A stretch of DNA of 64,000 nt. It comes from Spirochaetia bacterium (GTDB lineage: Bacteria; Spirochaetota; Spirochaetia; DSM-27196; Salinispiraceae). Where the stretch lies: positions 1 to 64,000 of the forward strand of contig JBBRCZ010000011.1 of the NCBI GenBank assembly GCA_038204425.1, written 5' to 3'. Made by a program: the position numbers. Position 1 is the first letter of the stretch; every line of letters begins with the position of its first letter. This document shows, one piece after another, positions 12,001 to 15,000 of the stretch.

Positions 12001-15000
12001 TGAACTACTGGAAGCTGAAAGAAGAGCAATTCCTTTGCTAGAATACACTGAGGCCTTGGGCGCCTTTTCTTCTGGCCTGGATTCGTCAGGCGTAGCGGGT
12101 GTTCATGGTAAGACGAGTACTACCGGCATGTGTGGAACCTTGGTTAAGCACTTGGGGCTCAAGGGATCGGTTCTGGTTGGATCGGGAGTTTCCAACTTTG
12201 ATGGCCGTTCAACGTTAAGCATGGGAAGTGATTTTTTTGTTGCGGAGACATGTGAGTATCGCCGTCATTTTTTGCACTTTTGCCCAAGTCGCATCATCCT
12301 TACCAGTGTCGAGATTGACCACTTGGATTACTTTAAGGACTTTGACGATATAGTTGAAGCCTTTGTTTCCTATGGCCTCTTGTTGCCTCAAAAAGGTGAG
12401 CTTATTTTCTGCGCAGACGACCACGGAGCCAGGCTCGTAGCAGCTAAAATAGCCGTAGTGCGCCCAGACATCGTTATGACAGACTACGGTTTTTCTGCCA
12501 AATCAAATTACAGAATCATAGCAAGTCGCCAAGAAGAAGGGCGTCAGGTTTTTTCCTTAGAAGCATTTAAGAAAGAGAACGGCCAAGCTTTTGAGTTTTT
12601 TTTGCAGGTTCCAGGTTTGCATAACATTCTCAACGCCAGCGCCGCGCTCGCCTTGCTGTCATCAATTTATCGCACGCACTATGGTAAGCTCGACAGCAAG
12701 GTAATAGACAAGCTTGCGGTGGGTTTGGCGTCATTCAAAGGCTGCAAACGGCGATCCGAAGTCTTGGGCGAAGTTAAAGGGATACTGTTTATGGATGACT
12801 ACGCCCACCATCCCACCGCTATCAGGACAACGCTGGAAGGCTACCGTCGATTCTATCCATCCCGCCGTCTCGTGGTGGACTTTATGTCTCATACTTACTC
12901 ACGCACCAAGGCCTTGCTACAAGAGTTTGCACGCAGTTTTGGCGATGCAGACCTTCTGCTTTTGCACGAAATCTATGCCTCGGCGCGTGAGCAAAACCCC
13001 GGCGACATATCTGGCCAAACACTATTTGAAAGCAGTAAACGCCACCACGCCAAGGTCGAGTATTTTCCACAAGTGATGGACGCCTGCGATTTTTTGCGTC
13101 GTGAACTACGTGCTGGTGATGTTTTTGTGACTATGGGCGCCGGTGACAACTGGAAGCTCGGTCGGGCCTTGTTTGATGAACTTAAGCAAAATCAAGCAAA
13201 ATCAGCGCGTGCGAGTTACGCCTTATGAAGAGCATGACAGGTTATGGCTATGCCGAAGGCAACGATGGCCGTTTTTCGGCGAGCATTGAACTTAAGACTT
13301 ACAACAACAGATACCTTGATTTGATATTTTCTCTGCCACCGGTCCTTGGCCCACTAGAAGAGCGCTTGCGCGAGACTTTGCGCCAAAAAATAGCCCGGGG
13401 TAGAATAGAACTATTTCTTAGATTTAAAGACCTTCAGGAGCAGCTCAGCATTAGCTTGGATCAGGCCAACATCGAGTCATACGCTGAAGTTCTCCGAACT
13501 CTGTCACGGCTGGCCGGCTTGCCCGATGCCCTAAGACTCGAACACCTACTTGCAATGGATGGTCTGGTACGAGTCGACCGAAACCGCGATATTGAGGCAT
13601 GTTGGAGCTTTTTGCTGCCACTGTTGCAAGCGGCCTTGCTGGAACTTGAGGCAAGCCGTCTGCGTGAAGGTAGCGCCATCAGGGCCGACTTGTTGGCACA
13701 ACTATGCATTATCGAAGGCTTGGCTAGCTCCATGGAAAAGCATGTCCCCCAGATAGAACTGACGGTGCGCGACCAATTGCGACAGCGCTTTGTTGGGCTT
13801 ATGGGTGACCTGGTTGATGAGCAGCGCATGCTTGCAGAAGTGGCTGTCCAACTCAACAGATTGACGGTTCATGAAGAACTGGTAAGACTGGCAGCGCATT
13901 GTGGTGCTGCTCGCCAGTTTATCCAAGAAGGTAAGCAAGCAGGGAAGAAGCTTGACTTTCTGTTTCAGGAGATGAATAGGGAGATTAACACAATAGGTTC
14001 AAAAAGCAGCCTCGTCGGTCTATCCAACGATGTCGTATCTGCCAAAGAAGCTTTGGAAAACTTGCGTGAGCAGGTGCGAAATGTGGAGTAGGGCGCATGC
14101 TAAAACCTGGCATTAAGATAGCTATTTCTGGCAAGAGTGGCTGTGGAAACTCCACTGTATCCCGGCTACTCGCCCAAACCTTGGATCTGCGTATGATCAA
14201 CTACACTTTTCGTAATCTCGCAATCGAGGAAGGGCTGGAACTCAACCAACTGCGCAGTATGGCTGAGACTGACGAGCATTGGGACACTAACTTAGACAAA
14301 AAGCAGATCCAACTTGCTCAAGAAGGAGGCTGTGTGCTCGGCTCGCGCTTGGCCATTTGGTTGCTCAAGGACGCTGACCTTACCATTTATCTGACAGCTA
14401 GCTCTGATATTAGAGCCGGCCGTATACATCAGCGCGAAGGTGGCAACTTAAACGCAATCTTGCTTGAAACCATGGAACGAGATAGACGAGACAGGGATCG
14501 CTACCTTAAACTCTACAAAATTGACAATGACATCTATCAATTTGCTGATTTAGTGATTGATACCACCCATCGTGATCCAAAAATGGTTTTGGATGACATA
14601 ATCATCACATTGCGAATCAAAAAACTACTATAATGAACAGAGTAAACATTCCTAAAATAGCAAGGAGTTCTGTATGGGCAAGAACGTGCTCGTCGTTGAC
14701 GATTCAAGTGCCATTCGTCAAAGCGTCAGTTTTATACTCGAACAAGCGCAGTATCAAGTTACACAAGCCAGTGATGGCGTCGACGGTTTGCAAAAACTGG
14801 CTGGTCAAGAATTTGCCCTCATACTCTCTGATGTCAACATGCCAAACATGGATGGGATCAGCTTTACCAAAAAAGTACGAGAGCAAGAAGCTTATCGCTA
14901 TATTCCGATCATCATATTGACCACCGAATCACAAAGCAGCAAGATGGAGGAAGGCAAGGCGGCCGGAGCAACCGGCTGGATTGTTAAGCCTTTTGACGCC

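Follow-up and report, generated by a model that had tools for sequence, protein, structure and literature searches.

Phosphorylation of GMP to GDP is indispensable, and in archaea no gene has been assigned to it (PMC4177761). A gap is also found in Borrelia, where a metabolic model annotates both BB_0128 and BB_0819 as cytidylate kinases and assigns GMP_K to the adenylate kinase BB_0417, in its words a 'presumed nonspecific enzyme' (PMC10734484). A Borrelia metabolomics table carries gmk without literature support (PMC10370097), a table of salvage enzymes names no GMP kinase (PMC2764106), and PMC8305020 holds nothing on a GMP or CMP kinase. For the archaeal-type '(d)CMP kinase' family TIGR02173, the name and gene position suggest identity with COG1102/arCOG01037. 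In a study of S. islandicus, the COG1102 gene M164_1441 and PyrH were each called essential, and the 'proven function' of the Sulfolobus COG1102 orthologues is left blank (PMC6249222); the essentiality of M164_1441 could possibly arise through polarity on neighbouring genes. In the literature that we covered, mostly outside subscription journals, we found no assay of the TIGR02173 family, no proposal of it as a GMP kinase, no experimental support for its CMP label and no essentiality data for BB_0819. Bacterial Cmk, the other close relative, uses four residues to read cytosine (in E. coli numbering Ser36, Arg110, Asp132 and Arg188); the Arg110Ala variant of one bacterial Cmk is inactive (PMC7259600, PMC3603445).

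An archaeal-type kinase gene in the gmk slot

We analysed a window of 64 kb, the whole stretch of DNA under study, from a genome of the class Spirochaetia. The first-pass annotation had proposed that an archaeal-type 'Cmk2' encoded there, P0001, is the GMP kinase of the class, and that its gene displaced gmk in situ without being its orthologue. Both proposals are supported by the absence of Gmk, the near-universal presence of the gene and its in-place position, to which we add a separate case in Actinomycetota and an exchange of the cytosine-reading residues. We put the probability at about 0.8 that P0001 is the GMP kinase of class Spirochaetia, working like Gmk without being one, GMP being the substrate that we infer. 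The features of the locus are as follows.

11741..13228, + strand: murC, which overlaps the start of yicC and is the upstream neighbour in most class loci
13225..14091, + strand: yicC/yloC endoribonuclease gene (TIGR00255, 203 bits), the usual upstream neighbour of gmk, marking the slot
14097..14633, + strand: P0001, a P-loop NMP kinase of the TIGR02173 family (178 aa), candidate GMP/dGMP kinase
14130..14153, + strand: P-loop GKSGCGNS, residues 12-19 of P0001, in which Asn18 replaces the Walker A lysine
14283..14297, + strand: Asp63 and Asp67 of P0001, proposed guanine readers; Asp63 aligns with Cmk Arg110 (E. coli numbering)
14340..14351, + strand: GSRL, residues 82-85 of P0001, opposite DGRD of Cmk; the phosphate-binding Arg is retained and the cytosine-N4-binding Asp132 is replaced by Leu
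14412..14501, + strand: LID region of P0001 with Arg106, Arg109, Arg113, Arg128, Asp132 and Arg135, each present in 70/70 class sequences
14674..15039, + strand: CheY-like response regulator, the next gene here and outside the feature; many relatives have rpoZ-miaA instead

Five bases separate yicC from the P0001 reading frame. P0001 passes the TIGR02173 cut-off (123.6 bits against 102.1) and fails that of bacterial Cmk TIGR00017 (50 bits against 135.55), while PF00625 gives no match at the locus at E <= 1 and does not appear among the 10 matches that Pfam yields at E <= 0.1. The host genome (95.6% complete) was said to have no Gmk, and indeed PF00625 yields just three sub-cut-off matches there at E <= 1, the best of which falls inside miaA. 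The canonical cmk said to exist beside the archaeal-type gene is likewise present, at C1:304831, before rpsA. The placement in a yicC-gmk-rpoZ-miaA slot held on the upstream side, with P0001 directly after yicC, but not on the downstream side: the next gene here is the CheY-like one, and rpoZ-miaA lies on contig C1 (C1:209436-210696) behind a tRNA-Ala(CGC) gene. The operon is split in the host genome, with rpoZ-miaA away from yicC and the kinase gene. Proteins 52-55% identical to P0001 on four named contigs come from Spirochaetia or Treponema, and BB_0819 of Borrelia is presumably its orthologue. Scans for promoters and terminators at the locus gave matches at chance level only. Further downstream, at 15032-15670 (+), a 212-aa ORF, hydrophobic at its start and rich in Ser/Thr over one stretch, has no Pfam or NCBIfam match; a similar-looking ORF stands after the kinase gene in locus L113.

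To describe the slot across the class we used one locus from each of 67 genomes, taking the best-scoring loci and 14 picked by hand, with the gene labels rpoZ, miaA, secY, L34e, L14e and cbf5 checked. The kinase gene has yicC directly upstream in 58 of the 67, so that the adjacency reported earlier (29 of 29) largely persists without being universal, and rpoZ lies within 700 bases downstream in 26 genomes, from 17 of the 25 families (rpoZ or miaA had been reported in 19 of 29). On these two counts the in-place position in the gmk slot stands. Among the nine loci with no adjoining yicC, one is at a contig edge and seven belong to family f38. In the 30 best-scoring outgroup gmk loci, from five families, yicC precedes gmk in 17 and miaA follows in 24, and the full order yicC-gmk-rpoZ/miaA is found in 11.

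Gmk and the TIGR02173 family exclude each other

Gmk, scored with the PF00625 profile and not with TIGR03263, gave no match in any of the 201 class genomes (152 of them of high quality), which extends the 0 of 151 given before. Homologues of P0001 occur in 197 of these genomes (151 of the 152) and canonical Cmk in 186 (145 of the 152), close to the 151 and 146 of 151 in the first-pass annotation; the homologue is kept more often than Cmk, and a few class genomes have a second match to P0001. All distribution figures here are given as counts, with no test, because kin are not independent.

In a phylum sample of 251 genomes, the 35 members of the class all carry TIGR02173 and none has Gmk, and outside the class Gmk is present in 205 of 216. 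The 11 others comprise six genomes of families f68 and f84 that carry a divergent TIGR02173 protein (BLAST aligned four of the six, at 25-28% identity) and five with neither gene. The earlier claim that the homologue is absent outside the class (0 of 104) has to be given up, although all six carriers lack Gmk. One Gmk-bearing genome outside the class showed a weak 42-bit TIGR02173 match. The five genomes with neither gene, which include both genomes of family f52, count against the GMP-kinase reading. In family f52 (G201 and G216, 93% and 73% complete) neither Gmk nor TIGR02173 was found, possibly reflecting a third solution for GMP or else assembly gaps. The 14 control genomes divide into 10 bacteria with Gmk and four archaea with TIGR02173.

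All five f68/f84 genomes tested keep Cmk, and in none of the five did we find Gmk, yicC or either type of PyrH. These families fit the pattern without singling out a GMP gap, because PyrH is missing as well, and we set them aside as a clean second replacement, as they lack PyrH and yicC and their gene lies outside the gmk slot. The five genomes tested (from L101-L106) keep a long Cmk ORF of 773-803 aa and one Lys-type TIGR02173 protein; three of them are on a single contig.

GMP is the monophosphate left without a kinase

None of the 201 genomes of the class has a bacterial PyrH above the cut-off, compared with 189 of the 251 phylum genomes. UMP and dTMP are nevertheless covered, because archaeal-type PyrH (TIGR02076) is found in 94 of 101 class genomes, the host included (G000:C4:106500-107168), and Tmk in 96 of 101; UMP and dTMP were rejected on these grounds as the true gap of the class. 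Since Cmk, Tmk and archaeal-type PyrH are kept and Gmk is absent, GMP alone among the monophosphates lacks a kinase throughout the class. An Adk-like ORF of the host genome, recognised by its motif, lies on C3. The host also has four PPK2 matches; its three PPK2-family genes, one of them with two domains, lie at C9:59609, C5:178264-179763 and C2:209984 and could provide a side route from GMP to GDP; as a class-wide route PPK2 was rejected, there being no match in four of the five class genomes tested (G167, G026, G055 and G034).

Spirochaetia thus have two NMP kinases of archaeal type, TIGR02076 and TIGR02173. In the case of TIGR02076, the class uses the archaeal type in preference to the bacterial one, a homologous swap with function unchanged, whereas P0001 would replace a non-orthologue and receive a new function assignment.

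A separate replacement in Actinomycetota

The search match P0080, a kinase preceded by an actinobacterial-IHF-like piece, led to the Actinomycetota, from which 96 genomes were sampled (the class of G431; assignment to the phylum per the record of L040). TIGR02173 is present in six of them and Gmk in 89, and no genome has both. The six carriers are six of the seven Gmk-less genomes, the seventh being also without an rpoZ match. In all six the TIGR02173 gene lies between mIHF and rpoZ, on the operon strand in three and inverted in three, and this is where gmk itself lies in 19 of the 20 best gmk loci, the other ending at a contig edge. Cmk and bacterial PyrH are kept in all five carriers tested, and the replacement proteins have a normal GKS P-loop. 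Forcing the six actinobacterial proteins and the spirochaete proteins into one clade was rejected (p-AU 0.0007), and forcing the two actinobacterial groups together was not (p 0.665); these topology tests were run without row P0274. Given the occupied slots and this rejection, gmk has therefore been replaced in place by the TIGR02173 family at least twice.

P0001 would share with Gmk (TIGR03263/PF00625) its reaction, and the two share their slots (yicC-X-rpoZ-miaA and mIHF-X-rpoZ-coaBC) and a mutually exclusive distribution; P0001 differs in having no PF00625 sequence match and probably another NMP-binding domain. In P0080 the IHF-like H2TH piece precedes the kinase in one reading frame, and the protein stands apart from the six actinobacterial ones in the tree; it may represent a further replacement in the mIHF slot.

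Fold, P-loop and base pocket

The predicted model of P0001 (pLDDT 97.3) has a Cmk-like P-loop kinase fold, with Z scores of 19.3 for 3hdt, 17.7 for 2h92 and 17.6 for 1kdo (rmsd 3.5 A over 170 aligned residues of 1kdo_A). That the closest folds are Cmk and two uncharacterised Clostridia kinases counts against the GMP-kinase reading. Among the fold neighbours listed Gmk does not occur and Fap7 does. A search by sequence found no solved structure of a family member, the best match being S. aureus Cmk (E 1.9e-8). P0001 has the fold of bacterial Cmk (1kdo, 2h92) and keeps the equivalents of Arg131, Arg181, Asp185 and Arg188, the last three as Arg128, Asp132 and Arg135; unlike Cmk, it has no beta-sheet insert in the NMP domain, has Asn for the Walker lysine, and has lost or exchanged the equivalents of Ser36, Arg110 and Asp132.

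The P-loop had been reported to read G[KR]SGCGN[ST] in 30 of 30 sequences. Among 70 distinct class sequences the full motif occurs in 59, and the more specific point, Asn at the lysine position of Walker A (GxxxxGK[ST]), holds in 69, with Ser in the other one; this loss counts against the GMP-kinase reading. The lysine is also replaced by Thr in 11 of 32 other family members. All 90 Lys-less rows of alignment A1 have Arg106 together with Arg or Lys at 113, and the 120 listed subfamily members without this pair keep the Walker lysine. The pattern, confounded by descent, suggests that residues 106 and 113 compensate for the lost lysine, and in P0001 the LID residues Arg106 and Arg113 would probably stand in for it.

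The base pocket differs from that of Cmk. Asp63 is matched to Cmk Arg110 by a profile alignment and by ungapped pairwise alignments through S. pneumoniae Cmk, and both residues lie 21 residues before the conserved Arg of their families. Asp63 is invariant, both in the 123 rows of A1 and in the 120 bacterial Lys-type subfamily members listed; Asp67 is present in 122 of the 123 rows. At the position of Cmk Asp132 all 123 rows have Leu, Ile or Met (Leu85 in P0001). The family has a shorter or altered Ser36 turn, with two residues fewer in P0001. Three of the four cytosine contacts of Cmk are missing in P0001, and the sole one kept, the Arg188 equivalent, counts against the GMP-kinase reading. The residues D63, D67, L85, R109, R128 and Y140 of the TIGR02173 family are all present. 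An exchange of a hydrogen-bond donor for an acceptor, combined with the loss of an acceptor, suits guanine or uracil and not cytosine; guanine is chosen over uracil because of the genome counts.

Together, these features suggest how P0001 might work. P0001 would be an NMP kinase with a Cmk scaffold that came from archaea, settled in the gmk slot and makes GDP, and probably dGDP, from GMP in Spirochaetia. It would retain the phosphate- and ribose-binding residues of Cmk, with the polarity of the base pocket reversed: Asp63 and Asp67 would replace the cytosine-reading Arg and Asp and may act as hydrogen-bond acceptors for N1-H and N2-H of guanine. We favour somewhat an enzyme specific for GMP over one that also takes CMP.

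Origin and archaeal relatives

Apart from being over the TIGR02173 cut-off, P0001 shares Asp63, Asp67, Leu85 and the LID arginines with the archaeal cytidylate kinase of that name and groups with Micrarchaeota copies placed after L34e; it differs in its bacterial gmk slot, in the canonical Cmk also present and in its Asn-type P-loop. The Asn-type P-loop is common to spirochaete proteins and archaeal ones. Of 10 proteins looked up, P0036 (Asn-type) was the one with a taxon, Micrarchaeota, and the Lys-type P0071 is named from Anstonellaceae. Among 33 metagenome loci with the gene, L34e is directly upstream in 24, eight look spirochaetal (yicC or rpoZ) and one has neither. An ESM Atlas search with the kinase gave taxon hints only. 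In two quick, unrooted trees, with most rows carrying no taxon name, the spirochaete proteins (SH-aLRT 99) fall inside a clade with archaeal ones that has support of 98 and 100. The gene would have moved from archaea to Spirochaetia, a direction that we infer because the archaeal copies hold a ribosomal-operon position.

Since the spirochaete gene groups with these Micrarchaeota copies, the GMP kinase missing in archaea may be this family as well. No canonical Cmk occurs in the four control archaea; CMP too may thus depend on the family there, and a dual GMP/CMP enzyme is possible. We hold it likely, with less assurance than for P0001 itself, that the whole TIGR02173/COG1102 family represents guanylate kinases of a second structural type that use the Cmk scaffold. 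It would be the archaeal GMP kinase known as an activity but linked to no gene, taken up by bacteria repeatedly as an in-situ substitute for gmk, and its spirochaete form would work with no Walker A lysine. The CMP label of the family is probably wrong or incomplete.

The Lys-type subfamily includes names from Bacteroidota, among them Bacteroides ovatus (three among the 120 matches listed). The Bacteroidota control genome has Gmk, and these relatives, which probably keep Gmk too, count against the GMP-kinase reading. At L156:1433-2023, on a bacterial-looking contig, lies an Asn-type member close to the archaeal ones; by eye, its neighbours are an RluD-like gene and, on the other side past one short ORF, a holB-like gene.

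Alternative explanations and implications

P0001 could be the second (d)CMP kinase that its annotation says it is, with a relaxed Adk or PyrH handling GMP as in the Borrelia model. The name of TIGR02173, the Cmk folds nearest to the model, the lack of canonical Cmk in the control archaea and the fusion of the kinase domain to a CCA-adding enzyme in P0283 all agree with this, as does the entry for BB_0417 in that model (PMC10734484). In a survey of T. maritima, NMP kinases were mostly narrow, and PyrH took all ribo-NMPs in 19-h reactions (PMC10248530); such breadth counts against reading P0001 as a GMP kinase. A second CMP kinase, however, would leave unexplained why in two phyla the gene took over the site of gmk with Cmk retained, why three of four cytosine contacts are missing and why the homologue outlasts Cmk (197 against 186 of 201), and we consider it unlikely. 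Slightly less credible still is the idea that P0001 is a P-loop protein with no catalytic activity, or with a regulatory role, that partners YicC, the omega subunit of RNA polymerase or the ribosome. Such a role would account for the Asn at the Walker lysine (69 of 70), for archaeal copies among ribosomal protein genes and for Fap7 as a fold neighbour, but not for catalytic arginines invariant in the class or for Actinomycetota replacements with a normal GKS; the lysine is exchanged for Thr in 11 of 32 other members as well, the gene is kept in eight class genomes without adjoining yicC, and the GMP gap would persist.

Least probable of all, in our view, is that P0001 phosphorylates another monophosphate, chiefly UMP. 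The change of Arg to Asp and the loss of Asp132 would also fit a switch from cytosine to uracil, the Arg188 equivalent is kept, no class genome has bacterial PyrH over the cut-off (0 of 201), and f68/f84 carry the family with neither PyrH type found. Against this stand the archaeal-type PyrH of 94 of 101 class genomes, host included, the bacterial PyrH kept in five of five Actinomycetota carriers and, in the S. islandicus study, the separate essentiality of PyrH and the COG1102 gene (PMC6249222).

One named family fits both the archaeal and the Borrelia gap. If this reading is right, a core archaeal gene is mis-annotated, and the question of how archaea phosphorylate CMP would reopen. The GMP kinase on which Borrelia and Treponema depend would differ from the human enzyme and could offer a narrow-spectrum drug target, and P0001 would show that a P-loop kinase can work with the Walker lysine lost.

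Domain arrangements in the family

Eleven longer proteins, among them P0275-P0284, include fusions to DUF4301 (eight), DUF1538, an HD domain and a CCA-adding enzyme (P0283); no partner among them indicates guanine metabolism. Five other proteins (P0026, P0038, P0056, P0067 and P0077) consist of two TIGR02173-like domains in tandem. In four of these, position 63 is Asp in one domain and His in the other, and P0077 has Asn and His, a hint that a single chain may combine two base specificities.
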